64,000 nt of DNA from a virus: UHGV virus genome UHGV-1455077. One strand, 5' to 3'. Both the position numbers and the translations under genes were made by a program. A model generated the notes under the pieces. The model did not search any database and was not told where the DNA came from. It saw nothing but the letters and a program-made list of their open reading frames with translations. Below, in pieces: positions 4,522-60,002 of this stretch. The stretch's first letter is position 1; the number at the start of each line of letters is the position of its first letter.

Positions 4522-4550
4522 TTTGTCTGTATTTATTAAATACAGACAAA
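4522..4550. promoter_or_regulatory. palindrome TTTGTCTGTATTTATTAAATACAGACAAA immediately upstream of the RBS of 4107-4508(-)
   Basis: Perfect dyad with TATTTATTAAATA core. Same architecture with different arms at 37115, 37687, 56128 and 59974. Confidence 0.5.
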
Positions 4551-4607
4551 CTTTATAAAGAAAAAATTATACAATAAATATTATTATATTGATAGGAGAA
4601 TATACTA

Positions 4608-5126
4608 ATGTTTAATGAAATAGTTACTCAATATGGTTCATCTGAACCTATTAAATCCTCTGTAACAACTTCTGAAAGTTCGGATAAAAAAATTGTTATT
4701 TCTTTTCCTTTATTGATGAGAATTATGGAGTGGTGTCACGAAGATGCTAAAGATGATGTTGAAATGCACAAAGTAATGGAAAAATTAATAGCATTTAATG
4801 ATGGTATGAATCCATTAACTATTGATGTTTATGATTGCTTAATTGCAGATGTATCAGAAAATAATTGTCAAGATATGGTAGAACCTATGCAAACAGGTTG
4901 TTTTTCTGAATATGATATGACTGATGCCGTTAGTGCTGTAAAAAAATCATATGATGAAATGATACCTTTAGATACCAAATCTTTTTCTTGGGAAAAAGGT
5001 TTAGATGATAATTCTACAACAATTACATTAAATGGTGATGAAGAATGTTCTTCTGAACAACCACAAGAAGTTGATGCAGAATTAGAAGAAGAAATTCAAA
5101 ATTTAATTAATTTAAGTAAATTATAA
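4608..5126 (+). CDS. hypothetical acidic protein
   Basis: ORF, RBS ataggagaatatactaATG. Confidence 0.4.
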   Translation: MFNEIVTQYGSSEPIKSSVTTSESSDKKIVISFPLLMRIMEWCHEDAKDDVEMHKVMEKLIAFNDGMNPLTIDVYDCLIADVSENNCQDMVEPMQTGCFSEYDMTDAVSAVKKSYDEMIPLDTKSFSWEKGLDDNSTTITLNGDEECSSEQPQEVDAELEEEIQNLINLSKL

Positions 5127-5138
5127 TTAGGAATATTA

Positions 5139-9057: not shown

Positions 9058-9075
9058 TTTTTTTTATTTTTCCTA

Positions 9076-9104
9076 TTGACAAGTAATTTTTATATGTTAT
9101 ATTA
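9076..9104 (+). promoter_or_regulatory. sigma70-like promoter (TTGACA-16-TATATT). Part of a 78-bp promoter-leader cassette that recurs identically at 29057-29135
   Basis: Exact copy of the sequence at 29057-29135, including leader, RBS and ATG. Confidence 0.55.
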
Positions 9105-9138
9105 ACCTTATCAAAAACAACAATGAAAGGTTAATAAG

Positions 9139-12051: not shown

Positions 12052-12127
12052 GGCACTCTAGCAACCACGGTTGATGCGTCTGTCTGAAGAACAGAATAAC
12101 TCGGTTCGACTCCGAGGGGTGCCACCA
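12052..12127 (+). tRNA. tRNA-Phe(GAA), CCA encoded
   Basis: Acceptor GGCACTC/GGGTGCC; anticodon loop CTGAAGA; T-arm CTCGG-TTCGACT-CCGAG. Confidence 0.7.
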
Positions 12128-12135
12128 ATTTTATT

Positions 12136-12215
12136 CGGGTAGTTGGGGAGTTTGGTTACCCCGCTTGCTTTGGGAGCAAGAGAACTCGCAGGTTCGAATC
12201 CTGCCTACCCGACCA
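12136..12215 (+). tRNA. tRNA-Pro(TGG), CCA encoded
   Basis: Acceptor CGGGTAG/CTACCCG; anticodon loop TTTGGGA; T-arm GCAGG-TTCGAAT-CCTGC. Confidence 0.65.
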
Positions 12216-12299
12216 TTTTTAATAAATTAAATGTTCCAATAGTTTCTAACTAGCTAGTAGAATAAAGGATAATAACCTTTTTGGAACGCCGAGTTTCTT

Positions 12300-12377
12300 G
12301 GGCCAGTAGTTCAGTTAGGGAGAACGCCTGCTTTGCAAGCAGGATGTCGTGGGTTCGATTCCCACCTGTGTCCACCA
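12300..12377 (+). tRNA. tRNA-Ala(TGC)-like with a one-nucleotide bulge in the 3' acceptor strand (G3:U70 retained)
   Basis: GGGCCAG...anticodon loop TTTGCAA...T-arm GTGGG-TTCGATT-CCCAC...CTG(T)GTCC-A-CCA. Confidence 0.5.
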
Positions 12378-12663
12378 ATTTTTAAAAAGATTTGTGATAG
12401 GTGAAAACTATCATAAAAATGGGTAAATGCATACCGTTAGTCACAAGCATTCGGAGTCAGCCGCTTCGTTAGATAAGGGTATCGCCGTTTGAGATTTTAA
12501 GCGTTATTAATAAATCTCACCAGTTAGGTAGACAACTCCTGATTTGACTAATCCAGAACATTAGGTGAAGATGTTTTTAATATATATTGAAAAGAGAAGC
12601 CGAGCGTCACTCGCTCTAAAGGAGTAATTGTAAATCGCTCACCAATTTATTTAAGTTTAAAAA

Positions 12664-13008
12664 ATGATAGAATTAAGAAATTGTAAAAAACACGGTTTAA
12701 CAGAATTTTCATATCATAAATCTGGTAATAGATGGAGATGTAAAAAATGTATGGTTGAAGCTGTTAAATTAAGAAGGAAAAAAATTAAAGAAAAAGCTGT
12801 CGAATATAAAGGTGGAAAATGCGAAATCTGTGGATATAATAAATGTATAGATGCATTAGAATTTCATCATTTAAATCCAAAAGAAAAAGATTTTGGAATT
12901 GGAGAAAAAGGTTATACTCGCAGTTGGATAAAAATTCAAGAAGAACTTGATAAATGTATTATGGTGTGTGCAAATTGCCATAGAGAAATACATAATAAAG
13001 ATACGTAA
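12664..13008 (+). CDS. HNH homing endonuclease
   Basis: CxxC...CxxC zinc ribbon plus HNH core (EFHHLNP...CANCHREIH); located inside the tRNA array. Confidence 0.7.
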   Translation: MIELRNCKKHGLTEFSYHKSGNRWRCKKCMVEAVKLRRKKIKEKAVEYKGGKCEICGYNKCIDALEFHHLNPKEKDFGIGEKGYTRSWIKIQEELDKCIMVCANCHREIHNKDT

Positions 13009-13015
13009 TTTTTAT

Positions 13016-13092
13016 TCTGACGTAGCTCAGTTGGTTAGAGCGTTCGCCTGTTAAGCGAAGGGTCATAGGTTCAAGTCCTATCGTCAGAGCCA
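13016..13092 (+). tRNA. tRNA-Asn(GTT), CCA encoded
   Basis: Acceptor TCTGACG/CGTCAGA; D-arm GCTCAGTTGGTTAGAGC; anticodon loop CTGTTAA. Confidence 0.75.
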
Positions 13093-13287
13093 ATATTTAA
13101 TAAAAAATTTGTATGAAAGCTAGTGAGTAATACAGATAGTTTAACCCATCTGTACTTCAACAGGGTTCTTGCCATAGAAATAAATGGTCGTTGGATAGAA
13201 AATGTCAATGTTATGAAAAGGAACATTCAAAGTTTTAGTTTTTGAGTGGTAGTTACTAAATTAACAAATAAACTACCATACTTTTAT

Positions 13288-13363
13288 GGTTCGGTGACAG
13301 AACGATTAATGTACCCGTCTGCAAAACGGTGTTTAGTGGGTTTGACTCCCACCCGAATCTCCA
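13288..13363 (+). tRNA. tRNA-Cys(GCA), CCA encoded
   Basis: Acceptor GGTTCGG/CCGAATC; anticodon loop CTGCAAA; T-arm GTGGG-TTTGACT-CCCAC. Confidence 0.6.
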
Positions 13364-13389
13364 TTATTGTTTTTTCAAAATTTTTAAGA

Positions 13390-13520
13390 ATGGTGAGAAA
13401 TTGATTTACATAGACTGGAAATCCGTGTGTAGAAAGTTCGATTCTTTCCCCATCGACCATTTAACGGTGGGTAGCTCATTGGTAGAGCAACGTAAAATGA
13501 TAATCAATTGTTATGTTCCT
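13390..13520 (+). ncRNA. permuted or split tRNA-like unit 1. A tRNA 3' half (T-arm, 3' acceptor strand, ACCA) precedes a 5' half (5' acceptor strand, D-arm), and is itself preceded by the 25-nt motif
   Basis: 3' acceptor CCCATCG at 13449-13455 pairs 7/7 with 5' acceptor CGGTGGG at 13465-13471, 9 nt downstream. D-arm GCTCATTGGTAGAGC follows. A second copy with compensatory acceptor changes is at 23324-23455. Confidence 0.4.
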
Positions 13521-14178
13521 TCTTAATTTTAAAAGTTTTGGTAGTTGGAAGTTAAGCTTTTGGGGCAGGAGCAACTTAACTTCCATCTATTGATGCGTGT
13601 CCTGATTTAATTAATTACCTTCTCGTGGTTCAGGATGTAAGTAAGAATTGCAGTTTTTGACATAAGACAATTCTGAAACTAAAGATTAATATTAAAATGA
13701 TTTAATTGAAGTATAGTAAATTAAATAAGTTGATTAAATAAGTGAGCAAGATAGAATCAACTAAAGGTAATAATATGCAGATTATATGCCGAACTACTAA
13801 CGCTTAAGGTAGATGTAGGAAATAACCTCGGTAGGGCAATTTAATTGTTAATCTCTTAGAAGTCCTAAAAAAATAAACCGTTTTAAAAAACTGCGTTAAA
13901 TTAAAATTTTGAAATTGTTGTTCTCCTTTCATTGTTTTTCATACAACAAGAGTAAAAATATTCTTAGTATCGGGAGAGGTAATATCTTATCTCTCTCTTT
14001 TTATAAAAATGCTGGCAATATTGGTTCGAATCCAATATGTATATCTTATCCTAAAAATTACTATTATAGTATTAGATTTAAATAGTAATGATATGTCAAA
14101 TTTAATAAGAACGTGTTATTGAATTATATACATTAGTTTAATGGTAGAACCCCAGCATTTCTATAAGAAGATTTTTAT

Positions 14179-14245
14179 GGGTGTATAAGTCAACGGTTAG
14201 ACTAACAGCCTTTTAAGCTGTAGATTCGGGTTCGATTCCTTTATA
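14179..14245 (+). pseudogene. degenerate tRNA-Lys(TTT)-like element
   Basis: D-arm AGTCAACGGTTAGACT and anticodon arm ACAGC-CTTTTAA-GCTGT are present, but the T-stem and 3' acceptor are not recoverable. Confidence 0.25.
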
Positions 14246-14736
14246 ATCAATAATGTATAAGAAAAATAACAAATTTCTTTCTTGATAATTAGGTAATGAA
14301 ATTAATGCCTAATTATGACAAGTATTTAACAAAATTTTCTGACTCTAATCAAAGAATTAGTGATTGATAGTTTAAGAATTATCTGTATACGTGAATGACA
14401 CCCTTTATCAACGTTTGCATACATAACTGCATAAATCAAGATGGGTTAGGTGGTCGTTTATCCGTTTCACCTTTCATATGATAAACAAAACGAAAAACGG
14501 ATTGCATTTTTTATAATATTCAAAATGGGTATTAGATAAGATATTGGTAGCTAGATAACCCAATATATGATAAAAACCATTATTGATAAGGTTTAAGATT
14601 TCGACCTTTAACCCAATGGAAATCCAGTTTATCTATTGTACTTGGTTAACAATAGCGTAGAATTGGTCATTCTCAAAAAGGTACGTAAGCCTTTTTATAT
14701 TAAATAAATATCTTATATAATTTATGAGGTATTAAA

Positions 14737-15159
14737 ATGAAATTAATTGACATATTAGCATTATTTAAAGCTATAAAAAATACTGCTAAAAAATATCATT
14801 GGAAAACTGTTGGCACAACATTTATGTCTGACCATTTATTATTTGATAGAATTTATGATGATATTGATGATGACCAAATTGATACAATTGTTGAACAATA
14901 TTATATGGGTCTTGGAAGAAAAGATATTGATGATTTAGATAATTTAATTGCATTATCTGCTCAATATGAAGGACAGTCTTTTACTGCTTCTTCTGAAAAT
15001 TTATTAATGATGTATCAAGAATTAGCAAGAATGATGAATACATTTTTAGTAAATGTTGAAAAATTAAATTTATTAAGAGGTATAAATTCTGAATTAGATA
15101 ATATTGCATCAACAATTACTCAATTATATGGTTTAGTAACTGCAAGATTAATTCAGTAA
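14737..15159 (+). CDS. hypothetical protein
   Basis: ORF, RBS atgaggtattaaaATG. Confidence 0.4.
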   Translation: MKLIDILALFKAIKNTAKKYHWKTVGTTFMSDHLLFDRIYDDIDDDQIDTIVEQYYMGLGRKDIDDLDNLIALSAQYEGQSFTASSENLLMMYQELARMMNTFLVNVEKLNLLRGINSELDNIASTITQLYGLVTARLIQ

Positions 15160-15190
15160 TTTATAAATTTAATATTATAAACATTTAAAT

Positions 15191-15267
15191 GACCCCATCG
15201 TCTAAATGGTTAGGATACCACCCTTTCAAGGTGAAGATTACGGGTTCAAATCCCGTTGGGGTCGCCA
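15191..15267 (+). tRNA. tRNA-Glu(TTC), CCA encoded
   Basis: Acceptor GACCCCA/TGGGGTC; anticodon loop CTTTCAA; T-arm CGGGTTCAAATCCCG. Confidence 0.7.
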
Positions 15268-15495
15268 ATTTTGGTTGCTATCGGAAATCAAGTGCGAATT
15301 TATGATATGATATATCGGATAAATCATATGGAAAAATGGTAACTTGTGGTACGCCAAACTTAATATGTACCGATAATGTATTAAGTTAAAAATAGCGTTT
15401 TAATATTCAATTTGTCCTTGCCTTTACTTTATAAAGGACTTACAGGCGAGGGGGTGGTCTGGAGTTTAAATAGAGGAAAGTCCCCCAACATTTTT

Positions 15496-15569
15496 GGTGT
15501 ATTAGTTTAATGGTAAAACTCCCGACTGTCTATCGGAAATCAAGGGTTCGATTCCCTTATACACCGCCA
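15496..15569 (+). tRNA. tRNA-Asp(GTC), CCA encoded
   Basis: Acceptor GGTGTAT/ATACACC; anticodon loop CTGTCTA; T-arm AGGGTTCGATTCCCT. Confidence 0.7.
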
Positions 15570-15894
15570 TTTTTTATTTTATGGGAATATTATCATTCGA
15601 TATTATATTTTTATCTATCAAATAGTGATAAATCAACAGCTTAAGATTAGGACACTTAATAAATGAAACAATGTAATTTTTGTGTGTAGTAAAATTTATT
15701 GGTAGTAATTTATTAATATATGGAAAATCTAATGAATCATTAATGTAGAAATACACAACTTTAATGATAGTGAAAAATAATTGTCAATGGTATTTCAAAC
15801 AATTGTTTGATTTGATATATAACCACGATATAATTATATAATCAAGGTTTTACCTTGGTATTCCCCACCAAATTTATTAGAAGGATTTTTAATA

Positions 15895-16221
15895 ATGAAA
15901 TATAAAAAGAAATATATTGTAGTTGGTGCATACAAGATGAAAGATAATACAATTAATTATTCTTTTTATTATATGAATGAATGCTTTTTAAATACTTTTG
16001 CAACAACTTATTCATTAAATGAAGCTAAAGAAATTGTTAAACAGCTTTATAAAAATGTTAAAAAAGTTAATAAGCTAAAGAAAAATCGAAAAAGATATAC
16101 ATATTTCATTGTTAAAGCACATACATCAAAAACAAAATTATCTAATGGAAAATATTTATATATTAATAGAGATATACTTGATGAATTTAGTTCATATTGT
16201 ATTAAATGTGAAATTAAATAA
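15895..16221 (+). CDS. hypothetical basic protein
   Basis: ORF, RBS aggatttttaataATG. Confidence 0.35.
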   Translation: MKYKKKYIVVGAYKMKDNTINYSFYYMNECFLNTFATTYSLNEAKEIVKQLYKNVKKVNKLKKNRKRYTYFIVKAHTSKTKLSNGKYLYINRDILDEFSSYCIKCEIK

Positions 16222-16538
16222 AAATGAGATATATGCCTAATGTTTTCGGTAAAAAATCAAGAAAACAAATGCCTAAATGGTCAAGACATATATCAATAGT
16301 CTGTGGTACCAAATTCCGTAAGGTTCAGCGGGAACTCCTGTATTTATACTTTCCTGCTGGTAAAAAGTTCAGTCATCGAACATAGAATGACCAAACCAGC
16401 GATAAAGGTGGAAAGCCTTTAACAATATATGTGTAGATATGGCGAAAGTTGGTAAAAGCTCCGAGTGATATTGGTTTTAGGTTGTTTGAATTTTGAAGGT
16501 TAAAATTCAATTCCTTTTTCTATGTATATAATTAATTT

Positions 16539-16614
16539 GGGTGTGTAACTTAATTGGTAGAGAAACTGACTCTTAATCAGTATGATGAGGGTTCGAGTCC
16601 CTCTGCACCCACCA
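16539..16614 (+). tRNA. tRNA-Lys(CTT), CCA encoded
   Basis: Acceptor GGGTGTG/TGCACCC; anticodon arm ACTGA-CTCTTAA-TCAGT; T-arm GAGGGTTCGAGTCCCTC. Confidence 0.7.
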
Positions 16615-16629
16615 ATATGTAAATTTAAT

Positions 16630-37101: not shown

Positions 37102-37114
37102 TGAATTATCTCCT

Positions 37115-37140
37115 TTATTTCTATTTAATAAATAGAAATA
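37115..37140. promoter_or_regulatory. palindrome TATTTCTATTTAATAAATAGAAATA upstream of 36700-37101(-)
   Basis: Same architecture as 4522-4550 with compensatory arm changes. Confidence 0.5.
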
Positions 37141-37143
37141 AAC

Positions 37144-37686: not shown

Positions 37687-37715
37687 TTTGAAGTTATTTA
37701 ATAAATAACTTCAAA
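37687..37715. promoter_or_regulatory. palindrome TTTGAAGTTATTTAATAAATAACTTCAAA upstream of 37144-37677(-)
   Basis: Same core TATTTAATAAATA with different arms. Confidence 0.5.
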
Positions 37716-37770
37716 CCTTTTTAATGATTCTTCAATGAATAAATATTTGTATAGTTTTAAAGGTTATTAA

Positions 37771-48654: not shown

Positions 48655-48658
48655 CATT

Positions 48659-49648
48659 ATGGATTTAATAGATTGGTGGATAAACTTAGAACCTTTGTCA
48701 GTAGAAGAAAAAAAATTATTAACTTCTTCAAGAAATGATGAATTTATAGATAAAATTTTTACAGTATCATTGACATCAGAATTTATTAAAAGATTACCAA
48801 ATTGTAATTTATCTAATGAATATCAAGTACGTGTAGATAATTGTGCAACGAATTTAATTCAAAGTTTATTTAATACATATATTGATGATGATACTCTTGT
48901 TATATATACCGAAAATGAGCATTATAAAATTAAAGGAATTCTTGATGCATTTAAAAATAAATTGGTATTAAGTTATAATGATATACTTAAATTAAATATG
49001 TCTAAAATAGCTTCTCAATTATCTAAATTCAAAAAAGTTTTTGTTTATATTATTGGAACTCAATTATCAAGTGGAGAAATAACTTCTCAATATTTTTTCA
49101 TAAAATTAAAAGAATTATTAAATACTTATAAATGTCAATATAAATTAGTTTTAGATGATGTTCACGGAATGTTTTTTGTCCCTCGTGATTATAGCATATT
49201 TGATTATATTATTGGAACAACACACGCCCTCATTCCATCATATCATATGGGGATTTTAATTGGTAAAGAAAATATGGATAAATTTGGAAGAATACAATAT
49301 CAATGGGAAGATGAATATCTTAGAGCATTAGATGTATTATTAAAAAGAAAAGAAAAAATTTATCAATTTAAATATATAATGGAACAAAGTTTAGCTAAAA
49401 TTATTTCTGAAGGTAAATGTCATTTATTAACTCAAACTGCCCCACATTTGTTTACTTTAAAAACCGACCAATTACAATATAATCAAGAATTTAAAGATGA
49501 ATTGGATAAGTATGGAATAAGGTTAGAAGGGGTTAATGAAGAATTAAAATATATTTTATGTAGAGTATCACAATTTATTATTAATCCTAATATATTAAAA
49601 GAAGGTATTGAAACATTAAATATTGTATTAAACTATATGTATGAATAA
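48659..49648 (+). CDS. hypothetical protein; possible degenerate fold-type-I PLP enzyme-like protein (VLDDVHGMF motif), no obvious catalytic Lys
   Basis: YKLVLDDVHGMFFVP...DYIIGTTHALIPSYHMGIL resembles the (D/E)EAHG...SK(A/T)LG pattern of alpha-oxoamine-synthase-like enzymes, with His in place of Lys. Confidence 0.3.
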   Translation: MDLIDWWINLEPLSVEEKKLLTSSRNDEFIDKIFTVSLTSEFIKRLPNCNLSNEYQVRVDNCATNLIQSLFNTYIDDDTLVIYTENEHYKIKGILDAFKNKLVLSYNDILKLNMSKIASQLSKFKKVFVYIIGTQLSSGEITSQYFFIKLKELLNTYKCQYKLVLDDVHGMFFVPRDYSIFDYIIGTTHALIPSYHMGILIGKENMDKFGRIQYQWEDEYLRALDVLLKRKEKIYQFKYIMEQSLAKIISEGKCHLLTQTAPHLFTLKTDQLQYNQEFKDELDKYGIRLEGVNEELKYILCRVSQFIINPNILKEGIETLNIVLNYMYE

Positions 49649-49659
49649 GGAAAAAAATT

Positions 49660-50586
49660 ATGGGTAATATGGTTCAATTTGGAGTTTGGTCTAATTGTTG
49701 TAATGCGTGTGATTTTTGTTTACGTGAAGAAAGAATTCCATATAGCAAAGAAAAACAATTATATTATTTAGATATGATTAAAAAGAATATTGAATATATT
49801 GATTGGAAAGATAAATTTTCATATGGAATTTCATTACTTGGCGGAGAATTATATTACATTACTGATAAAGATTTACAAAAATCATTTCTTGAATTAATTG
49901 ATGTTATTATTGAAAAAGTATTAAAAGTTTCTACTAATCCAGAATGTAAGTATTCAACTGTTACAAATGGATTATACGACCCTGCATTTTTATATCAAGT
50001 TATTGATAAAATTGTTAATGAAGTAGGATTAAAAGCAATTGATGTTAATTTTTCATATGATTTAAAATACAGATTTAAATCAGAAGAAGACCGTTTAAAA
50101 TGTTTAAAAAATATTAATGATTTTCATTCAAGATATGATTATAATGTTGGTGTGCAAATGATTATGACACAATATGTTATTAATGAATGGAAAGCTGGAC
50201 GATTTGATGTCAATAAATTTATGGAAGAAGAAATTCCAGGAAATTATTTAACGTTTTTATATCCACATCCTGTAAGAACAGGTAAAAAATTAGATGATTT
50301 TAATTTTAACAGAAATGATTTTTTAGATTTTATTCAATATTTAAAAGATGAATGTTATAATGTTTATTTGTCATTTTTACATTCAACAAAAAATTCAGGA
50401 ACTTTTAAATATACAGGCTTACAAAATCGTATTCATCCATCAGTTAATGCCCAGCCTGTATTATCAGATGGTAAAGAAATTATAAATCAAGAATGTGGTC
50501 ATTCTATCATATATAAATGTTATAGCGATTGTGATGATTGTGTCTTATGCGATTTAAAAAATTTTGATGAGGAAGTATATCTATGA
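49660..50586 (+). CDS. radical SAM enzyme paralog 3
   Basis: WSNCCNACDFC, GGELY, SYDLKYRF, C-terminal CGHSIIYKCYSDCDDCVLCD. Confidence 0.65.
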   Translation: MGNMVQFGVWSNCCNACDFCLREERIPYSKEKQLYYLDMIKKNIEYIDWKDKFSYGISLLGGELYYITDKDLQKSFLELIDVIIEKVLKVSTNPECKYSTVTNGLYDPAFLYQVIDKIVNEVGLKAIDVNFSYDLKYRFKSEEDRLKCLKNINDFHSRYDYNVGVQMIMTQYVINEWKAGRFDVNKFMEEEIPGNYLTFLYPHPVRTGKKLDDFNFNRNDFLDFIQYLKDECYNVYLSFLHSTKNSGTFKYTGLQNRIHPSVNAQPVLSDGKEIINQECGHSIIYKCYSDCDDCVLCDLKNFDEEVYL

Positions 50587-51569
50587 AAAAACAAATGCAA
50601 TTTGAATTATGGGACGAATGTAATTCTAAATGTACTTTTTGTCATTTATGTAATAAAAATGGAAATACTCCAAATAATATAAAATTAGAAATGCTTCAAG
50701 ATACATTAGATAAAATTTCTGATTTATCAATTTATTCTGAATATAATACAATTGGTTTTATTGGTGGGGAATTTTTTCAAGGACAACTTAATACGCCTGA
50801 AATTAAATCTAAATTTATGGAATTGATGGATAAGGCTTGTTGGTTATTAAATAATGATTATATAGATAATGTTTGGATTAATGCTACATTAACAATTGGA
50901 AATCAAGATGATTTATATGCCGTTTTAAAGCGTTTTGAGGGGCATAAAGGAAATTTATGGATACTTACCTCATTTGATACATTAGGACGCTTCCACACCC
51001 AAAAAATGAAAGATAATTGGGATTATCATATGAAGAATATTCATAATTTATATCCAGAAATTAAATTTAATATTACTACTATTTTATCAGGTGATTTTAT
51101 TGAACGCTATTTAAATGATGAAATAAATTTTGAGCAATTTATGCAAGAATATAATGCTTCATTATTTTTTAAAGTTCCTGCATTACAAAAAGAATATTAT
51201 CATACTAATAAAGAAATGAATGATAAAATTGGTTATTTTTTTCCTACACGGGATTTATTTTTAGAATTTTTATCAAAATTTAGACAAACAGAACATCCTG
51301 ATTTATGGAATAAATTATTTAATATTGAATATCGTGCCGATACATTATATTGTAAAGAAAATGGCGATGATATAGAAATAACTCGTTCTAAAGATAATAA
51401 TTATATGGAAACAATTATAGATACAACCATTAATGAACAAATGGAAAGAGTAAAAGAAAAGCAAATGGATTATATTATGGATTGCGGGCATTTAAGTACA
51501 TATAATTCTTATATAGATGAAGATGGTTGTGCATTATGTGATAAGTTAATGTTTGAAGAACTAATATAA
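50583..51569 (+). CDS. radical SAM enzyme paralog 4
   Basis: WDECNSKCTFC, GGEFFQGQLNTPEIKSKFMEL, SFDTLGRFH, CGHL...CALCD. Confidence 0.65.
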   Translation: MKKQMQFELWDECNSKCTFCHLCNKNGNTPNNIKLEMLQDTLDKISDLSIYSEYNTIGFIGGEFFQGQLNTPEIKSKFMELMDKACWLLNNDYIDNVWINATLTIGNQDDLYAVLKRFEGHKGNLWILTSFDTLGRFHTQKMKDNWDYHMKNIHNLYPEIKFNITTILSGDFIERYLNDEINFEQFMQEYNASLFFKVPALQKEYYHTNKEMNDKIGYFFPTRDLFLEFLSKFRQTEHPDLWNKLFNIEYRADTLYCKENGDDIEITRSKDNNYMETIIDTTINEQMERVKEKQMDYIMDCGHLSTYNSYIDEDGCALCDKLMFEELI

Positions 51570-51589
51570 ATATTTCAAAAGGTAAAATA

Positions 51590-52540
51590 ATGAGTAAACA
51601 GATGCAATTTGAGTTATGGCAAGAATGCAATTCTAAATGTAAATTTTGTTATTTAGGAAAAGAAAATTGTCATACACCAGATGAATTAAAATTACAATCT
51701 TTACAAAATGCAATTGATAAAATTTCTGATTTATCAATTTATTCTGAATATGATACTTTATCATATCTGGGTGGAGAATTTTTTCAAGGACAACTTAATA
51801 CGCCCGAAATTAAATCTAAATTTATGGAATTGATGGAAAAAACCGCTTGGTTATATGATAATGATTATATTAAACACGTATGGATTTATGCTACATTAAC
51901 TATCGGCGACCAACAAGATTTATATGATACTTTGAAATTATTTAATAAAAAAGATGAATTATGGATTTTAACATCATATGATACAATTGGTAGATTTCAT
52001 ACTAAAAAGATGTTTGATAATTGGGATTATCATATGAAGAATATTCATAATTTATATCCAGAAATTAAATTTAACATTACTACTATTTTATCAGAAGACT
52101 GTATAGACAAGTATTTAAATGATGAATTGTCATTTAAAGATATGATGGAAGAATATCATTGTTCATTCTTTTTTAAGCAATGCGGCAATGGTTCTTATAC
52201 AAAAGAAGAAATGAATACAATTATTCCTCACTTCTTTCCACCTAGAGATAAATTTATTGACTTCTTACAAAAATTCCGCAATGAAGAAAATGATGAAATG
52301 TGGAATAAATTATTTAATATTCATTATAGAGCAGATAGTTTGTATAGGAATTTCAATGATAAAAATCATCAAATGGAATTAAATGTTCGTCATAAAGATT
52401 CATTAAATGAAATTGAAAATGATAATAAAGATGAAATGGAAACAAATGAATGTGGTCATTTAAAAGTTTATGCGGCATATATTGATTGTGATGAGTGTGT
52501 ACTTTGTGATAAATTAATGATAGAAGAATTTTTAAAATAA
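51590..52540 (+). CDS. radical SAM enzyme paralog 5
   Basis: WQECNSKCKFC, GGEFFQGQLNTPEIKSKFMEL, SYDTIGRFH, CGHL...CVLCD. About 77-bp and about 65-bp tracts are near-identical to paralog 4. Confidence 0.65.
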   Translation: MSKQMQFELWQECNSKCKFCYLGKENCHTPDELKLQSLQNAIDKISDLSIYSEYDTLSYLGGEFFQGQLNTPEIKSKFMELMEKTAWLYDNDYIKHVWIYATLTIGDQQDLYDTLKLFNKKDELWILTSYDTIGRFHTKKMFDNWDYHMKNIHNLYPEIKFNITTILSEDCIDKYLNDELSFKDMMEEYHCSFFFKQCGNGSYTKEEMNTIIPHFFPPRDKFIDFLQKFRNEENDEMWNKLFNIHYRADSLYRNFNDKNHQMELNVRHKDSLNEIENDNKDEMETNECGHLKVYAAYIDCDECVLCDKLMIEEFLK

Positions 52541-52550
52541 GGAAATATAA

Positions 52551-53027
52551 ATGATTACAATTGAAAATAATGATAATGATATTATGATTGAAAATGATGT
52601 CAATCAACCATATGTAAAAAAAATTATATTAAATAAAAGTATTACTATTAAAGCACAAACTAATACTTCTTTTGATATTAATACTGTCTTTAAATTTACT
52701 GATAATAATGATTTTGCATTTGTTGAAGGTGTTATTGTTGATGCAAAAGATTATTATGTAGTTGGAGAAGTATATAGTTTAGACCGCCAAAATAATAAAT
52801 TATCTTTATTAATTGGTAATAATTCAAATGTATCTTATACAATTCCAGCAGGAACTCATATTGCTAATATCTATACATTAGCAAAAAATTTTAGTGGTAA
52901 TGTTATATATAATAATGGAAATATTGCAGTAATAGATTATAATAACTATTATAAAGTTAGTGATACAACTTTAACTGAATTTCCAGATGGAAAAAAAGCT
53001 ATAACAATTAATTTAGATAAAGAATAA
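52551..53027 (+). CDS. hypothetical protein within the rSAM array
   Basis: ORF. Confidence 0.35.
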   Translation: MITIENNDNDIMIENDVNQPYVKKIILNKSITIKAQTNTSFDINTVFKFTDNNDFAFVEGVIVDAKDYYVVGEVYSLDRQNNKLSLLIGNNSNVSYTIPAGTHIANIYTLAKNFSGNVIYNNGNIAVIDYNNYYKVSDTTLTEFPDGKKAITINLDKE

Positions 53028-53983
53028 TGAGTTTACAAATACAATATGAATTATGGAGAGAGTGTAATTGTAAATGTACATATTGCACTCTTGGAATAGA
53101 TAATTGCTTAACAAGTAATGAATTAAAACTTCAATCAATGCAAACAGCAATTGATGAAATGAAACAATTTAAATCAAATGAACATCAAACAGTTGGTTTT
53201 ATTGGTGGAGAGTTTTTTCAAGGACAACTTAATACACCTGAAATTAAATCTAAATTTATGGAATTAATTACAGAAGCAAATAATTTATTAAATAATAATA
53301 TTGTAAAAGATTTATGGCTTAATGCATCATTATTAATCGGTAATCAAGATGATTTATATGAAGCAATAAATTTAATTAATGATAAAACAAAACTATGGGT
53401 TTTAACATCATATGATACAATTGGTAGATTTCACACATCTAAAATGTTAGATACTTGGAAATATCATATGAATAAACTTCATAATGATTATCCAGAAGTT
53501 AAATTAAACACTACAAGTATTTTAACGGGTGATTTTATTGAAAAATATTTAAATGATGAATTTGATATTGAAGATTTTAAAGCTAAATATCATACCAATT
53601 TATTTTTAAAAACAACTGTTAAACCTGGTCATTTAAGCCATTTAACAAAACAAGAAATTAATGATAAGATAGGTAATTTTTTTCCTACACAAGAAAAATT
53701 TCAAGAATTTTTATTTACATATTATTCACGTGAAGGAGAAGATGAATATCATAAATTGTTTAGTAATGATTTAAGAGCCGATGAGGTTCGTAAAAATTTC
53801 AATGATGAAAATAAAAGAAATATTAAATTTATAAGAGATAAAAACACTCTTGAAGAAACAATTGATTGTATTGATGAACATATTGATAATTTATCTTGTG
53901 GTCATTCATCTATCTATCAATCTTATGTTGATTCAGATGATTGTTCAATATGTGATAAACAACAAATTTTGGATATAATTTAA
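53027..53983 (+). CDS. radical SAM enzyme paralog 6
   Basis: WRECNCKCTYC, GGEFFQGQLNTPEIKSKFMEL, SYDTIGRFH, CGHS...CSICD. Confidence 0.65.
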   Translation: MSLQIQYELWRECNCKCTYCTLGIDNCLTSNELKLQSMQTAIDEMKQFKSNEHQTVGFIGGEFFQGQLNTPEIKSKFMELITEANNLLNNNIVKDLWLNASLLIGNQDDLYEAINLINDKTKLWVLTSYDTIGRFHTSKMLDTWKYHMNKLHNDYPEVKLNTTSILTGDFIEKYLNDEFDIEDFKAKYHTNLFLKTTVKPGHLSHLTKQEINDKIGNFFPTQEKFQEFLFTYYSREGEDEYHKLFSNDLRADEVRKNFNDENKRNIKFIRDKNTLEETIDCIDEHIDNLSCGHSSIYQSYVDSDDCSICDKQQILDII

Positions 53984-54662: not shown

Positions 54663-54690
54663 AAAAAGAGAGCTTTTTAAAGCTCTCTTT
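54663..54690. terminator. bidirectional rho-independent terminator
   Basis: AAAGAGAGCTTTttaaAGCTCTCTTT between convergent genes. Confidence 0.65.
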
Positions 54691-56098
54691 AACTATCACC
54701 TTGAGCAAAAATTATTCTAAAAGCTACTGTTGGACCATCAAATGTGTAACCTATTGTAAATTTTTGTCCTTTTCTAACAGGAAAATAAAGAACATCATTA
54801 ACACCACTTGTTGACCATTTTATTGCAATTGTATTTTCATCAACGCTAGTTGATGGTAAATCATTATCATAAGCAATCATATATTGACCACTAGCAGTTG
54901 CTTGTTTAACAAATTGAATATATCCATTTGCTAATGCTGTATAAGTTGTTCCAGATACACCTAATTCTAAATCAACATATTTAGAAGAAGGCATTGCTTG
55001 TTCTGCAATAAAAGTCGTATCATTTTTATCTAATAATTGATTTGTATTATATGGATTAAAAGAAATTATTTTACCTAAATTATTAGATATTGCTGTTCCA
55101 CAAATATATCTTTGTTGATTATCCCAAGTAGTTCCATTATAATAAAACATTTTATTATCATTTAAAACAAAATAATTTCCATTTCCAAAAACTTCTTCTT
55201 TTGTTTTAATGGTAAATATTGGTCTAAATAAAAGGGAATTAGATTGTTGAATAAAAATATATCCATTTCTTTCAATAGTTTCATTATAAATTAATACATT
55301 TGTTGTAATCGTTTCAATATTATTTAAACTACCATCTGAATTTCTATTATTTGGAATCAATCCTTTAACTCCAGGTAATGCAAATATTGTTGAACCAATA
55401 AAACCCAATCCATTAAATATCTGGTCAATAGAAATAATTCCAGTACCATTTGTTATATTTAATAAACTAAATGGCAACGAACAACCATTTTGCCAATTTG
55501 CTCCATTATCAATAGTATATTTAATAATATTATTTGCAGTATCATACCAAAAAGCATATGTTGCAGTAACGGTTGGTGCAGTATCTCCACTAAATTGTTG
55601 AGTTGATATTACCAATGCTTGAATTAAATTTGTTGGTAATAAACAAGCCATATGTTGGTTAGAAGCATAGGTTGATGCATTAAAACTAATATCATTCTCA
55701 ATTATTTTAATATCAAATTTTTTAGTAGTACCATCAGTTTCAAAACCATTAGGAATATATAATTTACTACCTGCTTTTAAAGTAATCGTATTATCTGAAT
55801 TTAATTCTACTTTAATATCTTGAGGTATTTCAGTAATGCAATTAGTAACTTGATTATAACCTATTTGTTCTTCACGCCATATTAAATTAGTGCCATCATT
55901 ACTTAATATTTGTTGACTTGTTTCAGTATTAAATTCTGGTATTGCTCCACCGTCAGGAGTTATATAAAATTCATTTTCAACTAATTGTCCAGCTTCTTTT
56001 AATTCTTCATATTTTGCTGAACTCATTTTATTAAATTTTAATTGTGCAATATCTGTATTTGTTGTCATAATAAACTTTTCCTTGATAAACTTATACAA
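54689..56098 (-). CDS. tail-fibre-like protein (paralog of 56895-58160)
   Basis: Shared blocks VTNCITEIPQDIKVELN..ITLKAGSKLY and IDQIFNGLGFIGSTIF. Confidence 0.5.
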   Translation of the reverse strand: MYKFIKEKFIMTTNTDIAQLKFNKMSSAKYEELKEAGQLVENEFYITPDGGAIPEFNTETSQQILSNDGTNLIWREEQIGYNQVTNCITEIPQDIKVELNSDNTITLKAGSKLYIPNGFETDGTTKKFDIKIIENDISFNASTYASNQHMACLLPTNLIQALVISTQQFSGDTAPTVTATYAFWYDTANNIIKYTIDNGANWQNGCSLPFSLLNITNGTGIISIDQIFNGLGFIGSTIFALPGVKGLIPNNRNSDGSLNNIETITTNVLIYNETIERNGYIFIQQSNSLLFRPIFTIKTKEEVFGNGNYFVLNDNKMFYYNGTTWDNQQRYICGTAISNNLGKIISFNPYNTNQLLDKNDTTFIAEQAMPSSKYVDLELGVSGTTYTALANGYIQFVKQATASGQYMIAYDNDLPSTSVDENTIAIKWSTSGVNDVLYFPVRKGQKFTIGYTFDGPTVAFRIIFAQGDS

Positions 56099-56127
56099 AT
56101 ATTTATTTTAAAATTATTGATAATAAA

Positions 56128-56156
56128 GTTTGTGGATATTTATTAAATATCCACAA
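56128..56156. promoter_or_regulatory. palindrome TTTGTGGATATTTATTAAATATCCACAAA between divergent fibre genes, just upstream of 56166(+)
   Basis: Perfect 29-nt dyad; identical copy at 59974-60002. Confidence 0.55.
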
Positions 56157-56165
56157 AGGGGATAA

Positions 56166-56570
56166 TTGATGACTGATATAAGTAAAATAGATATGGAACG
56201 AATTAATGGATTACTTGATAAACTTGAAGAAGTAACTGATAAACTTAATTCAATGAAATATGTTGTGGAAACTGGTGGAGATTCAACGCAATGGTATAGA
56301 AAATGGAATGATGGTTTTATAGAACAATGGGGGAATATAATTTTTTCACAATCTGCTGGAAGTTATACTAATCAAACAACAACATTACCAATAGCATTTT
56401 CTTCAACTGCATATTATATAACACTTATTGCAACAAATTCAAATAATCAACAAAGTCACACCTGTGGTATTTTAGTTAAAAATAAAAATTCATTTAATTG
56501 GTCATCATCATATTGGTGGGCAAGAGATGCATATGTTTCAAGCTTTAATTGGTATGCGTGTGGATATTAA
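56166..56570 (+). CDS. small tail-fibre-associated protein (family A paralog)
   Basis: ...QWYRKWNDGFIEQWGN...WYACGY. Confidence 0.5.
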   Translation: MMTDISKIDMERINGLLDKLEEVTDKLNSMKYVVETGGDSTQWYRKWNDGFIEQWGNIIFSQSAGSYTNQTTTLPIAFSSTAYYITLIATNSNNQQSHTCGILVKNKNSFNWSSSYWWARDAYVSSFNWYACGY

Positions 56571-56598
56571 AAAAGAGAGGTTTTAAAACCTCTCTTTA
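56571..56598. terminator. bidirectional rho-independent terminator
   Basis: AAAAGAGAGGTTTTaaAACCTCTCTTT. Confidence 0.65.
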
Positions 56599-56895
56599 TT
56601 CTTTTGGATATTTTTCTTTAATTGATTTAATTAATGTTTGCCAGTTATTTGTTCCATCTTCTAAATCGTGATATATCATATCTAACTGTTCAGCTAATGG
56701 TGGATATTCTTTTAATCTATTATTAATAGCAACAGCATTATGTGATTCAGATTCTTTAATATATTCTCCATTAACTAAAATATATTTTTCATTTGTTTTC
56801 ACTATTTTATCAAATTCCATAAGAGGAATAGATTCAATTTCTTTCTTTGTATTTTTAACTACAATAATCTTGTTATTTTGATAACCTAACCACAT
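56596..56895 (-). CDS. hypothetical protein
   Basis: ORF; ATGA overlap with the upstream gene. Confidence 0.35.
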   Translation of the reverse strand: MWLGYQNNKIIVVKNTKKEIESIPLMEFDKIVKTNEKYILVNGEYIKESESHNAVAINNRLKEYPPLAEQLDMIYHDLEDGTNNWQTLIKSIKEKYPKE

Positions 56896-58160
56896 TATAT
56901 TTCCCCTTTTGCATAGATAAATTTAAAACTAATTAAATTTGTAAATTCAGTATCAAACAATATTTGACAAGTTTCACCTTTTAAAACAGGTATAATTGTT
57001 CTTAAATATTTGTCTGCACTTCTTGATGCATAACAATAACCATAATTTAAACCACTTCTTATAATAGCTATATCAACCCAGTTTGGCCCTTGCCCATCTA
57101 TACTGAAATAACCATTTGCTGGAGCAATATAAGTTGCTCCTGATGCTCCTAAAGTTAATGAAACATATTTACTACCTGGCATAACTTGTTGTGTAATAAA
57201 TGTAGTATCATTTTTATCAAATAATTGATATGCATTATTAAAACTAAATGTAGTAATTTTTCCAGAAGCATCAGTTAAAAATGTTCCAATTGGACATACT
57301 ACCCAATCATTTAACCATCCATTTGAAATATCATTTAAAACATATTTCCATTTATTTTCATTTGGAGAATACCAAATAGAATATGTAGATAATGTTGGTG
57401 CATTATTTTGATAATAAACTTTTGATGTTTCTAAAAACTCTAATTGTCTTTCATCATCTGAAACTCTAGCAAATAATGTATATGATGTATTTGGAGCTAA
57501 AGATATTGTCCAATAAGTTAAAGTAGGTAAAATTTTTACAATATTATTTTGACTTCCATCATCATTGTTACCATTTGGAAATATATAAGTATTTCCACCA
57601 TTTTTAATTATTGTATTTCCAATAAAACCAAATCCGTTAAATACTTGGTCAATAGATGTCCAAGATGTTGTAGTAGATGTTCCAATAGCAAATGGAAAAG
57701 AACATTCTTGCCAACCATCAGTTGTATCCAAATAACATTTTTTATCAGTTGTATTAAAATAAATTTTAAATGTTGCAGTTGATTCGGGTAATTCAGATAC
57801 AGTTTCACCTGTTAAAAATCCAGTTAATAATACATCATAATCTTTAGAAAGTGCTAACATAACTTGACCATCATAATTTGCATTTGCACTTGTAATATCT
57901 GTTGTGGTAGTTTTCATAATACCATTACCATTATAAACTTTACTACCTGCTTTAAGTGTAATTGTACCATTATTTAATTCAAGTTTAATATCTTGAGGTA
58001 TTTTTGTTAAACAGTTTGTAATTTGACCATAAGTCCAATATGGTTTAGAACCATTATTACTTAACATCATTCCTGATGTTTCATCATTCATTAATGGCAT
58101 TTGAACACCATTTAACATAATTTTTTGACTAAGTTCATTGTTACCTAAATATAATGTCAT
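56895..58160 (-). CDS. tail-fibre-like protein paralog
   Basis: ITNCLTKIPQDIKLELNNGTITLKAGSKVY...IDQVFNGFGFIGNTI. Confidence 0.5.
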   Translation of the reverse strand: MTLYLGNNELSQKIMLNGVQMPLMNDETSGMMLSNNGSKPYWTYGQITNCLTKIPQDIKLELNNGTITLKAGSKVYNGNGIMKTTTTDITSANANYDGQVMLALSKDYDVLLTGFLTGETVSELPESTATFKIYFNTTDKKCYLDTTDGWQECSFPFAIGTSTTTSWTSIDQVFNGFGFIGNTIIKNGGNTYIFPNGNNDDGSQNNIVKILPTLTYWTISLAPNTSYTLFARVSDDERQLEFLETSKVYYQNNAPTLSTYSIWYSPNENKWKYVLNDISNGWLNDWVVCPIGTFLTDASGKITTFSFNNAYQLFDKNDTTFITQQVMPGSKYVSLTLGASGATYIAPANGYFSIDGQGPNWVDIAIIRSGLNYGYCYASRSADKYLRTIIPVLKGETCQILFDTEFTNLISFKFIYAKGEI

Positions 58161-59914
58161 TATTCACCCCAATCTACTATTGTTGCCGCAATATATGTTT
58201 TTAAAATTTTGTACATTTCCATCCAGTATGTTGTATTTGTTAATTCTGTTCCCGCTGGAATATTATCTTGTAATCCTAAATAACCATATTGAGCTGTACT
58301 ATCTTCATATGTTACAAAATCACTAGCAATATATGCTTTACTTGAATCCCAATCACCTTTAGGATTAATACCTTTACCACTTGTAATATCTACTGGAGTT
58401 GGGTTTTCTAAACCACCGTCATTTGTCCAAGATAATGTATAACCATTTTCCATAGGAGTTAATTCTGGAGTAAATGTTATACCTTCTGTACCAATATTAA
58501 GATTGTAAAAATATTTTAAATCTACTAATGTTCCAGCAGTTAATCCAGAAACTAATGTAACTGTTTTTTTATCTGTTCCTAATGTATAAGCCGCAGAAGT
58601 TAATTCTGTATTACCAACATTTACAGACAATACTGATTTATCATAAATTTCGTGAGAAGCTACAAAAGTTGTTTGTCCTTCTGTGGCTGTAAATGATTCA
58701 ACAATTCTTTGTGCATAATTAGTATAGATAGAAATTGTTTCAGGATTATCTAAATTTTTATTATTTGTAAATGAAATTGTTGCTTCGTGTGCATCTTGTG
58801 TTGTATGTGGTGTATATGTAACACCATCAGAAATAACAACGTCCGTTGGATTAGGCAATCCAGCATCATTTGTCCAAGATAATGTTGTATCCAAACCAAC
58901 TTTAGTTTGAGTTGGAGTATAGGTTGCACCATCTTTTATAATAACAGTATTTGGATTTTCCAATTCTCCATCATTTGTCCAAGATAATGTTGTTTCTGTT
59001 CCTGTTTTAGATTGTGAAGGAATAAATGTAACACCATCATAGATATGAGAATCTGCTGGGTTTTCTAAACCACCGTCATTTGTCCAAGATAATGTTGTAT
59101 CTCTATCAACTTTATTAATATGAGGAGTATAAGTTGCACCTACTTGAATCTCTAAATTATTAAACCAAGATAATTGAACTCTTGTTCCTATTGGAACAGC
59201 ATTTTTTAAAACAACGGTATCTAAAGTTTCATTTAAATCCCATTCAGAATTTAAAATAACTGAATTTTCAATATTAACAGTAATTAAATCTTTTTTAAGA
59301 ACTTTTTCACCTAAAGGAAAATCAGTTGTACTTTCTAAAGTTGTTGTAAATGATTTTGAAACAATTTGAGATACGTTTGTTGGAATAATCATATTACCAT
59401 ATACAATTACTTCAATATTATTACCTGGTTCAACTGGCTCATTAAAAGTAAGAGTTTTACCATCTTCAGCTAATGTATAGTTATTTGATTGTAATAAAAG
59501 GTTATTAATATTAACTGATAAAGATTCTTTGTTAGCAACTGCATCATCTAATACAACACTTGTAATTTCATTTACAGGGTCATAGAAAAATTTAGATGAT
59601 TTAAAATAACCTGCTAATAATTGCCATTTATTAAAATCAAATGGTTCTTGAGCTGTATGTTCCATTCTACATTGAAATAAACTATTATTATATGAAACAA
59701 TATCGCCAACACGGTAAGTAATACCAGGTGTCCAAATTGTTGAAGTATTATCACCACCTGTACCACCAATATCGTGAGCAACTTCATCAGGTGTTAAATA
59801 TTGAGCAAAACCATCATTATTAATTTTTACATAAGTATTAGGATTATCCTTAAAAGGTGATTGAAATTCATCAATCATACTTGTTGTAATTTTTATATTT
59901 GGTGTTCCAACCAT
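58160..59914 (-). CDS. tail-fibre-like protein with four to five tandem ~40-aa repeats (TLSWTNDGGLENP). Start moved to MVGTPN
   Basis: RBS aaggaaaattgaaATG at 59914. Internal repeats are visible as recurring tcatttgtccaagataatgt at 58418, 58867, 58970 and 59075. Confidence 0.5.
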   Translation of the reverse strand: MVGTPNIKITTSMIDEFQSPFKDNPNTYVKINNDGFAQYLTPDEVAHDIGGTGGDNTSTIWTPGITYRVGDIVSYNNSLFQCRMEHTAQEPFDFNKWQLLAGYFKSSKFFYDPVNEITSVVLDDAVANKESLSVNINNLLLQSNNYTLAEDGKTLTFNEPVEPGNNIEVIVYGNMIIPTNVSQIVSKSFTTTLESTTDFPLGEKVLKKDLITVNIENSVILNSEWDLNETLDTVVLKNAVPIGTRVQLSWFNNLEIQVGATYTPHINKVDRDTTLSWTNDGGLENPADSHIYDGVTFIPSQSKTGTETTLSWTNDGELENPNTVIIKDGATYTPTQTKVGLDTTLSWTNDAGLPNPTDVVISDGVTYTPHTTQDAHEATISFTNNKNLDNPETISIYTNYAQRIVESFTATEGQTTFVASHEIYDKSVLSVNVGNTELTSAAYTLGTDKKTVTLVSGLTAGTLVDLKYFYNLNIGTEGITFTPELTPMENGYTLSWTNDGGLENPTPVDITSGKGINPKGDWDSSKAYIASDFVTYEDSTAQYGYLGLQDNIPAGTELTNTTYWMEMYKILKTYIAATIVDWGE

Positions 59915-59973
59915 TTCAATTTTCCTTATATATTCATATAAGATATTTATAAAAAAATTTAGGAATAAAAAAG

Positions 59974-60002
59974 TTTGTGGATATTTATTAAATATCCACA
60001 AA
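59974..60002. promoter_or_regulatory. palindrome TTTGTGGATATTTATTAAATATCCACAAA, second copy, upstream of 60023(+)
   Basis: Identical to 56128-56156, including the flanking AAAG...AAAGGG. Confidence 0.55.

Follow-up and report, generated by a model that had tools for sequence, protein, structure and literature searches.

What does a perfect palindrome do when it stands directly before a small tail gene, and does so at locus after locus of the same phage genome? The question is raised by a window of 64,000 nt from UHGV virus genome UHGV-1455077 (the window is this whole stretch throughout), in which five copies of a 29-nt dyad each precede a gene for a small tail fibre or a tail-collar protein. 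Five such sites had been pointed out in a sequence-only reading of the window and all five were recovered by a scan for perfect dyads. We give an even chance to the reading that the palindrome is a DNA-level cassette promoter with a dyad (operator-like) architecture, a palindromic and regulon-specific variant of the T4-type late promoter.

The window palindromes have the general form TTT-R-N4-TATTTA-W-TAAATA-N4-Y-AAA. Each is a perfect dyad of two 14-nt arms and a single central base, and the five are the longest perfect dyads of the whole window. Five dyads of this size (14-nt arms, 1-nt centre) were counted, against none in 40 dinucleotide-preserving shuffles; the family far exceeds chance. 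The outer TTT...AAA is invariant and belongs to the arms, which had been described as self-complementary, correctly, and as shorter than their true 14 nt. Three of the earlier positions were exact, while 37115-37140 and 56128-56156 were corrected to 37114-37142 and 56129-56157. The last two sites are indeed one 29-mer at two loci. GGGG, GGAG or GGGT stands directly 3' of each palindrome and the ATG follows at 9-20 nt. The placement just 5' of a ribosome-binding site stands as first described, with a narrower distance than the 10-28 nt then given and with GGGT as an additional form. Divergent gene pairs, previously seen around several sites, flank four of the five. The orientation of all five cassettes (palindrome, Shine-Dalgarno sequence and gene) opposes that of the flanking gene arrays.

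The genes behind the palindromes belong together. All five window proteins have the N-terminal motif M-x-D-x-SK-[IL]-x3-R-[IV]-[DN], called here the N-anchor, and the collar and Gp53-like identities proposed from the sequence hold (Table 1). Pattern and protein scans placed the window in a clade of 200-285 kb contigs from uncultured human-gut jumbo phages, with members among the contigs of IMG/VR sample 3300045988 (149940, 143958, 163091, 152892) and the human-gut assemblies of ENA (OJNH01000001, UMLR01072909, ORKV01000065/142). The clade census gave about 52 distinct sequence contexts, cited below by L number, with at least 22 arm variants. The palindrome is followed by a small tail gene at 8-23 nt in all 52 contexts, the proteins ranging from 114 to 240 aa, which considerably widens the sequence-only observation. 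The N-anchor was present in 51 of the 52 downstream proteins and the remaining one was a Collar protein with another N-terminus. In the reverse direction the palindrome core was found within 60 nt upstream of every distinct N-anchor gene start (55/55). The C-terminal domains are diverse and include Gp53-like knobs, Collar and unrelated types of 142, 159 and 233 aa. Given this diversity on a common N-terminus, the set looks like interchangeable tips on one anchor. There are about 10 cassettes per genome, scattered among unrelated genes such as those for dUTPase and a GroEL-like protein. An indel alignment showed relative 143958 to be without the entire cassette 4, palindrome and gene together, with microhomology junctions that lie outside the dyad. 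Separately, a small-fibre gene body of 99% identity was found behind a GTCTG palindrome in L223 and an ATGGA palindrome in L129, with differing Shine-Dalgarno spacers as well, a swap that suggests exchange within the conserved N-anchor coding region.

The 13-nt core TATTTA-W-TAAATA was kept in every clade copy. All copies were perfect Watson-Crick dyads except L091/L137, in which one arm has a single mismatch that reads as C.A on the sense RNA. No G.U pair was present among the arm variants. Six variants have 15-nt arms (L116, L117/118, L130, L201, L204, L208) and the added base is mirrored in both arms, and in L197 the outer pair covaries to give TTC...GAA. Covariation was scored on 10 distinct 29-mers. 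Paired cells amounted to 99.2%, all five variable pairs change on both sides with none changing on one side only, and the score was reached by 0 of 500 shuffles. At one orthologous locus the arms are GTCTG/CAGAC in the window and in 152892, and GTTTG/CAAAC in three other genomes. That G.U is missing and that indels fall symmetrically suggests a constraint acting on the DNA, or on both strands, and not on a single RNA.

The palindromic form is confined to this clade. A search of 185,579 prokaryotic genomes returned 13 pattern matches, of which 11 were non-palindromic chance matches and the two perfect ones were contigs of the phage clade itself. A site for a host transcription factor was rejected on this ground. 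The dyad was not found at distant fibre-domain homologues in contigs of about 25-60 kb. An unrelated 57 kb contig of higher guanine-cytosine (GC) content (L183, IMGVR_UViG_3300028888_000164) has the same 15-nt core with GC-rich arms. Its element, TTCAGCGA-ATATTTATTAAATAT-TCGCTGAA, lies at 2434-2464, 23 nt before a 260-aa Gp53-like fibre gene, and a third arm copy (GCTGAA) 8 nt upstream could form an alternative hairpin. IMG/VR yielded no further copy of the L183 type and hence no additional covariation data.

Where a promoter for these genes could lie is restricted by their surroundings. The sequence upstream of the dyad is unrelated between paralogous sites. No conserved promoter was found upstream of the dyad, either of the sigma-70 type or as a generic clade box on the sense strand, and there was no sigma-70-type match at or beside the dyads. 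In L131 a same-strand gene of 545 aa is followed by an intrinsic terminator (2930-2958), 5 nt, the palindrome and the Shine-Dalgarno sequence. In L120 the terminator (2941-2963) comes after a 929-aa gene and abuts the palindrome, the left arm of which is also the terminator U-tract. A terminator scan confirmed both terminators, and scanning between terminator and palindrome in L131 and L120 gave no sigma-70-type promoter. The same layout with different terminators recurs in L201, L202, L209/L238, L216 and L224-227. The gap between terminator and palindrome is 0-5 nt in at least six contexts, and the ribosome-binding site comes directly after the palindrome. With a terminator on one side and a Shine-Dalgarno sequence on the other, the palindrome is the sole non-coding space left for a promoter.

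The palindrome also resembles a generic promoter class of the clade, the consensus of which is T-rich-(T/A)ATAAATA-T-N3-4-TATA. The window has 41 copies of (T/A)ATAAATA. Of these, 27 lie between genes, although non-coding sequence makes up only 17% of the window, and at least eight are placed 25-31 nt before an ATG. Clade DNA contains 38-45 distinct boxes, mostly 24-32 nt before an ATG, and after the box Y is found at +5 in 26/38 and A at +6 in 28/38. Read on the sense strand the right arm of the palindrome is (A)TTAAATA-N4-Y-A, one substitution from the generic box and in equal Y-A register, at 17-28 nt before the ATG. The sense-strand box ATTAAATA matches the T4 late consensus at 6/8 positions and the clade consensus WATAAATA at 7/8. 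The antisense box AATAAATA matches the T4 late consensus at 7/8 and the clade consensus in full. At all four divergent window sites the neighbouring gene has a generic box of its own at a constant 36-37 nt from the palindrome centre (Table 1), and in relatives this box is 21-24 nt away from the edge of the dyad, even though the sequence in between varies. A late-promoter element had been among the candidate functions first proposed, and it is the one favoured here on account of the abutting terminators and the box class of the right arm.

Table 1. Palindromes, associated genes and neighbouring signals in the window
Feature	Position	Strand	Remarks
Palindrome 1	4522..4550	-	arm GTCTG; centre A, not T, on the sense strand (1 of 3 such among 52 contexts)
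Palindrome 2	37114..37142	-	arm ATTTC; tandem context, stop codon of collar gene 3 nt upstream
Palindrome 3	37687..37715	-	arm GAAGT
Palindrome 4	56129..56157	+	arm GTGGA; same 29-mer as palindrome 5
Palindrome 5	59974..60002	+	arm GTGGA
Small fibre gene, 133 aa	4107..4508	-	N-anchor MDTSKLPISRVDEL; ATG 13 nt after palindrome 1
Small fibre gene, 133 aa	36700..37101	-	N-anchor MDSSKLPISRVDEL; behind palindrome 2
Tail-collar-domain gene A, 177 aa	37144..37677	-	N-anchor MADISKIKMNRID; Pfam Collar 1.1e-19; PHROG tail and collar families
Small fibre gene, 133 aa	56169..56570	+	Pfam Gp53-like_C 7.6e-11; behind palindrome 4
Tail-collar-domain gene B, 172 aa	60023..60541	+	N-anchor MADISKIKIDRID; Pfam Collar 1.3e-15
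Generic box AATAAATA of divergent gene 4608+	4573..4580	+	begins 37 nt from centre of palindrome 1
Generic box AATAAATA of divergent gene 37771+	37738..37745	+	begins 37 nt from centre of palindrome 3
Generic box AATAAATA of divergent gene 54689-56068(-)	56100..56107	-	36 nt from centre of palindrome 4
Generic box TATAAATA of divergent gene 58160-59914(-)	59944..59951	-	37 nt from centre of palindrome 5
Canonical bidirectional terminator closing cassette 4	56572..56597	.	example of a true terminator in this genome

The single base at the centre of the dyad is not neutral with respect to strand. On the sense strand it is T in 49/52 contexts and A in three, among them window site 1 and L206. It is flipped between nearest relatives, L141/L005 against site 1 and L203 against L206, which are 99.2-99.4% identical over 3-3.4 kb. 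A centre that flips readily and is yet held in one orientation indicates that the dyad is functionally directional. The loop of a terminator beside the palindrome was likewise found as its reverse complement, CCGCC-TATTAAA-GGCGG in L131/L224-226 and CCGCC-TTTAATA-GGCGG in L132/L227. Such a spacer inversion is typical of template switching.

Template switching during replication homogenises the arms of inverted repeats and inverts their spacers (PMC8604942, PMC8794818). Its expected traces are seen here as perfect arms, compensatory double changes made in one step, symmetric indels, loop inversion and central-base flips. The covariation may, in part or whole, be mutational rather than selected. 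The original argument ran from covariation to selection for pairing; the covariation itself is borne out by the shuffles, and the step to selection is weakened by these signatures. Template switching is a mutational mechanism and not a function, however, and neither the invariance of the 13-nt core nor the strand bias nor the exclusive association with one kind of gene can be put down to it. A reading that takes the flips themselves as functional, which we think improbable, is that of an invertible-switch or structure-read promoter for accessory receptor-binding proteins, in which the central flip would make the promoter stronger either toward the fibre gene or away from it. Since the central base is common to both -10 boxes, the consensus ATAAATA can stand on one strand only. 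Three flips of the central base attributable to template switching were seen, two of them in pairs of genomes with more than 99% identity. The dyad arms would then exist to make the flip frequent, and the result could be a heterogeneity resembling phase variation in which of the roughly 10 fibre tips a virion population displays.

In the favoured reading, that of a cassette promoter, the palindrome, the Shine-Dalgarno sequence and a small N-anchor fibre or collar gene would form a portable, moron-like cassette. The right arm would supply a -10-type box, A-TTAAATA on the sense strand. Transcription would start at the conserved Y-A, 5-6 nt past the box, the A of which opens the invariant AAAGG(G/A)G. 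The mRNA would then begin essentially at the ribosome-binding site and the hairpin would not be part of it. Expression would presumably be late. The mirror image in the left arm carries the stronger consensus AATAAATA, pointing away from the fibre gene, and may fire toward a divergent neighbour. Bidirectional action of the palindrome, with the better consensus on the antisense strand, is possible, as the earlier reading had also proposed for sites between divergent genes. Conservation of the left half equals that of the right, also in tandem contexts that lack a divergent gene. Because the whole dyad is kept there, a second layer is suggested, either a dimeric phage factor or a transient hairpin or cruciform, and this layer would mark the approximately 10 accessory-fibre genes of each genome as one regulon. 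For whole-dyad conservation a dimeric factor, a hairpin or cruciform and back-to-back promoters remain as three non-exclusive explanations. The symmetry of the arms is probably kept jointly by a constraint on the dyad and by homogenisation through template switching.

Several points weigh against a cassette promoter. Its transcription start is purely inferred, and an mRNA starting at the Shine-Dalgarno sequence would have an unusually short leader. The weaker box (TTAAATA) is on the sense strand and the consensus on the antisense strand, which is odd for an element that drives the fibre gene. The generic promoters of the clade are not palindromic. A plain promoter needs no perfect dyad of 29 bp, and the defining feature of the element is thus only half explained. 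Terminator read-through or antitermination could in principle feed the cassettes that abut a terminator. A hidden Markov model (HMM) built from T4 gp55 and five homologues was run against 1,842 open reading frame (ORF) fragments, and no gp55-like sigma factor was found in this approximately 1.16 Mb of AT-rich sequence, which belongs only partly to this clade and in which the genomes are present as fragments. The best match (E 0.003) was partial and unconvincing.

The rival explanations differ in the molecule on which the dyad would act. An RNA element, a hairpin at the 5' end of the fibre mRNA before the Shine-Dalgarno sequence that serves as a stabiliser or translational operator, is in our view rather unlikely. 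The predicted RNA fold of the dyad is a stable hairpin with a 13-bp stem and a 3-nt loop (free energy -9 to -14 kcal/mol, z -2.7 to -4.8), the spacing from dyad to Shine-Dalgarno sequence is fixed at 0 nt, the conserved central U of the sense strand could be a loop determinant and the compensatory changes fit a hairpin. In all five folds the Shine-Dalgarno core and the AUG are single-stranded and only the AAA before GG(G/A)G is paired. At the terminator-abutted sites there is neither space nor a conserved motif for a promoter upstream of the dyad, G.U pairs are missing from the arm variants and the lone mismatch is C.A, and the agreement between right arm and generic promoter would have to be put down to chance. 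Rfam covariance models at the gathering threshold gave no match to the palindromes, the tRNAs being the only matches in the window. The translational-operator and RNA-stability options of the sequence-only reading are accordingly disfavoured. If the hairpin were instead formed in DNA, an extruded hairpin or cruciform could be read by a phage RNA polymerase or factor in the manner of phage N4, with the loop base setting direction and only pairing mattering in the variable stem. This structure-dependent promoter would account for dyad and asymmetry in one step, and the symmetric changes in stem length, the predicted DNA hairpin (-8 to -10.5 kcal/mol, z -5.9 to -8.2) and the loop-centre purine of the template strand in 49/52 contexts agree with it. 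It has a slim chance of being correct: the start proposed above would fall inside the stem, template switching is a simpler source of perfect arms, the stem length and the kind of gene depart from N4, and the window shows no N4-like giant polymerase, as set out below. A pure operator, in which a dimeric regulator of phage or host origin binds the dyad to time or silence the accessory fibres while transcription starts from another signal, appears quite unlikely as well. The core layout of 6-1-6 or 7-1-7 is typical of dimeric regulators, the restriction to one gene family is regulon-like, and in T4 the protein DsbA occupies A/T-rich sites overlapping late promoters (PMC2988020). The cassette, however, has no other conserved promoter candidate, protein binding needs no self-complementarity at the 4-5 variable positions, and a change from 14- to 15-nt arms displaces the outer conserved TTTR by 1 bp per side. 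The window yielded no regulator gene, and the absence of the dyad from bacterial genomes speaks against a host factor.

Two further explanations concern the neighbours of the cassette rather than its own expression. As a terminator or insulator the hairpin would stop or process antisense read-through before it reaches the promoter of the neighbouring gene, as in promoter-early stem-loops (PeSLs), the cassettes having been inserted head-on into gene arrays. The opposed orientation of all five window cassettes suits such a role, as do the neighbour's promoter box at a fixed distance and the T-rich flank on the antisense side; folding in both transcripts would also forbid G.U. A consensus terminator scan accepted the GTGGA copies of sites 4 and 5 on the antisense strand; they were called mainly there, with only three GC pairs, and site 5 was also called on the sense strand. 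Sites 1-3 fail the scan, the base of the stem is AT-rich and sites 1, 2 and 4 have a poor U-tract or none. The true terminators of this genome are GC-rich stems with T-runs, sometimes right beside a palindrome, which would make the palindrome redundant, and the cassette would be left without a promoter. We therefore give little credence to this role, and as a general explanation the terminator was rejected, since only the two GTGGA copies pass the scan and true terminators look different. Recombination or mobility, with the palindromes as crossover or insertion points that shuffle fibre cassettes, is very improbable. It is suggested by the scattered and variably present cassettes, by the same gene body behind different palindromes in L223 and L129 and by identical 29-mers at separate loci. 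Homologous recombination within the conserved N-anchor coding sequence could account for such swaps, and the junctions of the cassette indel and of an inversion in 152892 were not at palindromes. No recombinase is adjacent, the sole homing endonuclease being in the tRNA region. Recombination at the dyad was rejected for both rearrangements that could be resolved, the cassette indel and the inversion.

The inversion involves the two collar genes, which lie on opposite strands and share inverted repeats of 90 nt (99%, 37396-37485/60230-60319) and 70 nt (93%, 37146-37215/60470-60539). The repeats bracket 22.7 kb of tail genes. This segment is inverted in contig 152892, with the crossover in the 90-nt repeat inside the collar genes, and the products are chimeric collar proteins (p28, p29) with swapped C-terminal halves. 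The arrangement recalls fibre switching of the Mu G or P1 C kind, though an invertase was not seen.

The window has a GC content of about 26% and 21-23 tRNA genes, in an array at 12052-27769 with small ORFs interspersed. Promoters of the sigma-70 type (TTGACA/TATAAT) are found in its tRNA and early region, and its ribosome-binding sites are strong and of the AAGGAG type. It is mosaic relative to clade members, at 70-99% identity. No close cultured relative was found by megablast of 55000-62000 against a phage collection or by tblastn of the 889-aa tail protein, and the ATPase had only distant matches of at most 37% identity. PHROG and Pfam scans of 40 window proteins identified no regulator or RNA polymerase. 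The homing endonuclease gene (19015-19680, PHROG 314, 3.8e-45) is inside the tRNA array. Also within the tRNA region is a 428-aa protein with a TROVE (Ro60-like) domain (24278-25564, + strand, Pfam 2.5e-17). Ro proteins usually partner with Y-RNA-like small RNAs, and Rfam at gathering thresholds reported no such RNA in the window. An identical 70-nt upstream region is present at 9069-9138 and 29063-29132, with a similar copy at approximately 36082-36151; it carries a sigma-70-type promoter (tttcctaTTGACAagtaattttta...) before three unrelated ORFs and looks like a repeated early-promoter cassette. Adjoining the tail-fibre genes, about seven tandem paralogous ORFs of 290-330 aa occupy 46881-53983 (+ strand), with N-termini of the form MQFELW-ECN--C, and two of them gave weak Radical_SAM Pfam matches (5.9e-07 and 3.3e-04). 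Two other perfect palindromes, at 23601-23624 and 40484-40505 (ACCCAAGAACATATGTTCTTGGGT, ATTTCCATCATATGATGGAAAT), are centred on CATATG and fall outside the family.

If the palindrome is a cassette promoter, a portable control module of about 40 bp would serve a whole repertoire of small receptor-binding or tail-decoration proteins, about 10 per genome and built on one anchor peptide, in jumbo phages that are abundant in the human gut and yet uncultured. It would provide a sequence tag by which every accessory-fibre gene in these genomes could be found. A T4-like late promoter with an added dyad layer would bear on how large phages subdivide late expression. The family would also be a natural case for separating functional constraint from the homogenisation of inverted repeats by template switching, and a caution that perfect compensatory changes are not proof of RNA structure.

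Literature searches returned no paper on palindromic late promoters or on palindromes upstream of fibre genes. The T4 late promoter TATAAATA is recognised by gp55 together with gp33 and the gp45 clamp. It is an 8-bp box at -13 to -6, about one turn before the start, with no -35 element, an AT-rich downstream sequence and A(-13) as a common variant (PMC2988020), and ATAAATA is the predicted late promoter of other jumbo phages, Rak2/GAP32/CBB-like (PMC5259590). On the favoured reading the palindrome would have in common with these promoters (PMC2988020; PMC5259590) an 8-bp AT-rich box placed roughly a helical turn ahead of the start, AT-rich sequence downstream, A at -13, short leaders and use for structural genes. 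Neither has a conserved upstream element, the flanks of the dyad being unrelated and in some cases terminator hairpins. The clade boxes keep a fixed distance from the start codon and the right arm is in the same register, with Y-A at the expected -1/+1 if the inferred start is correct. Unlike T4-type late promoters, the box of the palindrome is set within a perfect dyad of 29-31 bp with an equally conserved mirror half, has T rather than A at -12 on the sense strand and is limited to one gene family.

Control of the T4 gene-e type already offers a design in which a late box lies in the arm of a hairpin (PMC3014915). In T4 genes e, soc, 49 and I-TevI the late promoter is likewise within the 5' strand of an inhibitory RNA hairpin. 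The T4 hairpin sequesters the Shine-Dalgarno sequence and AUG of read-through transcripts, whereas the palindrome leaves both unpaired, and most palindrome sites have no same-strand upstream transcription to silence. The virion RNA polymerase promoters of N4 are dyads with a conserved top and loop, a variable paired stem and a purine at the loop centre of the template strand, and start about 11-12 nt from the loop centre. The palindrome has the same conserved top and loop, variable paired stem and template-strand purine, and its start would lie at a like distance from the loop centre. Its stem is of 13-14 bp compared with 5-7 bp in N4, it precedes tail-fibre and collar genes in place of early genes, and its start would be within the stem. 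No N4-type giant RNA polymerase was found in the window, where the two longest ORFs (912 and 889 aa) gave no match beyond He_PIG, an Ig-like domain. The analogy to N4 hairpin promoters drawn in the sequence-only reading is thus unsupported.

PeSLs of T4-type phages are short repeated stem-loop cassettes that border small accessory genes and are linked to indels and mosaicism between close relatives (PMC2839356, PMC4122927), and in both respects the palindrome is similar. A PeSL consists of a sigma-70 early promoter and a separate terminator stem-loop, while the palindrome has no sigma-70 motif and is non-canonical as a terminator. Its promoter box would be part of the stem, and the recombination junctions that were located lay away from the dyad. 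Phage morons are self-contained inserts of promoter, gene and terminator. The palindrome cassettes resemble them as independent units between unrelated genes, often in opposite orientation, sometimes with a terminator of their own (as for cassette 4) and variably present. They differ from morons in that all cassettes encode one protein family with a common N-anchor and carry one conserved palindromic control element.

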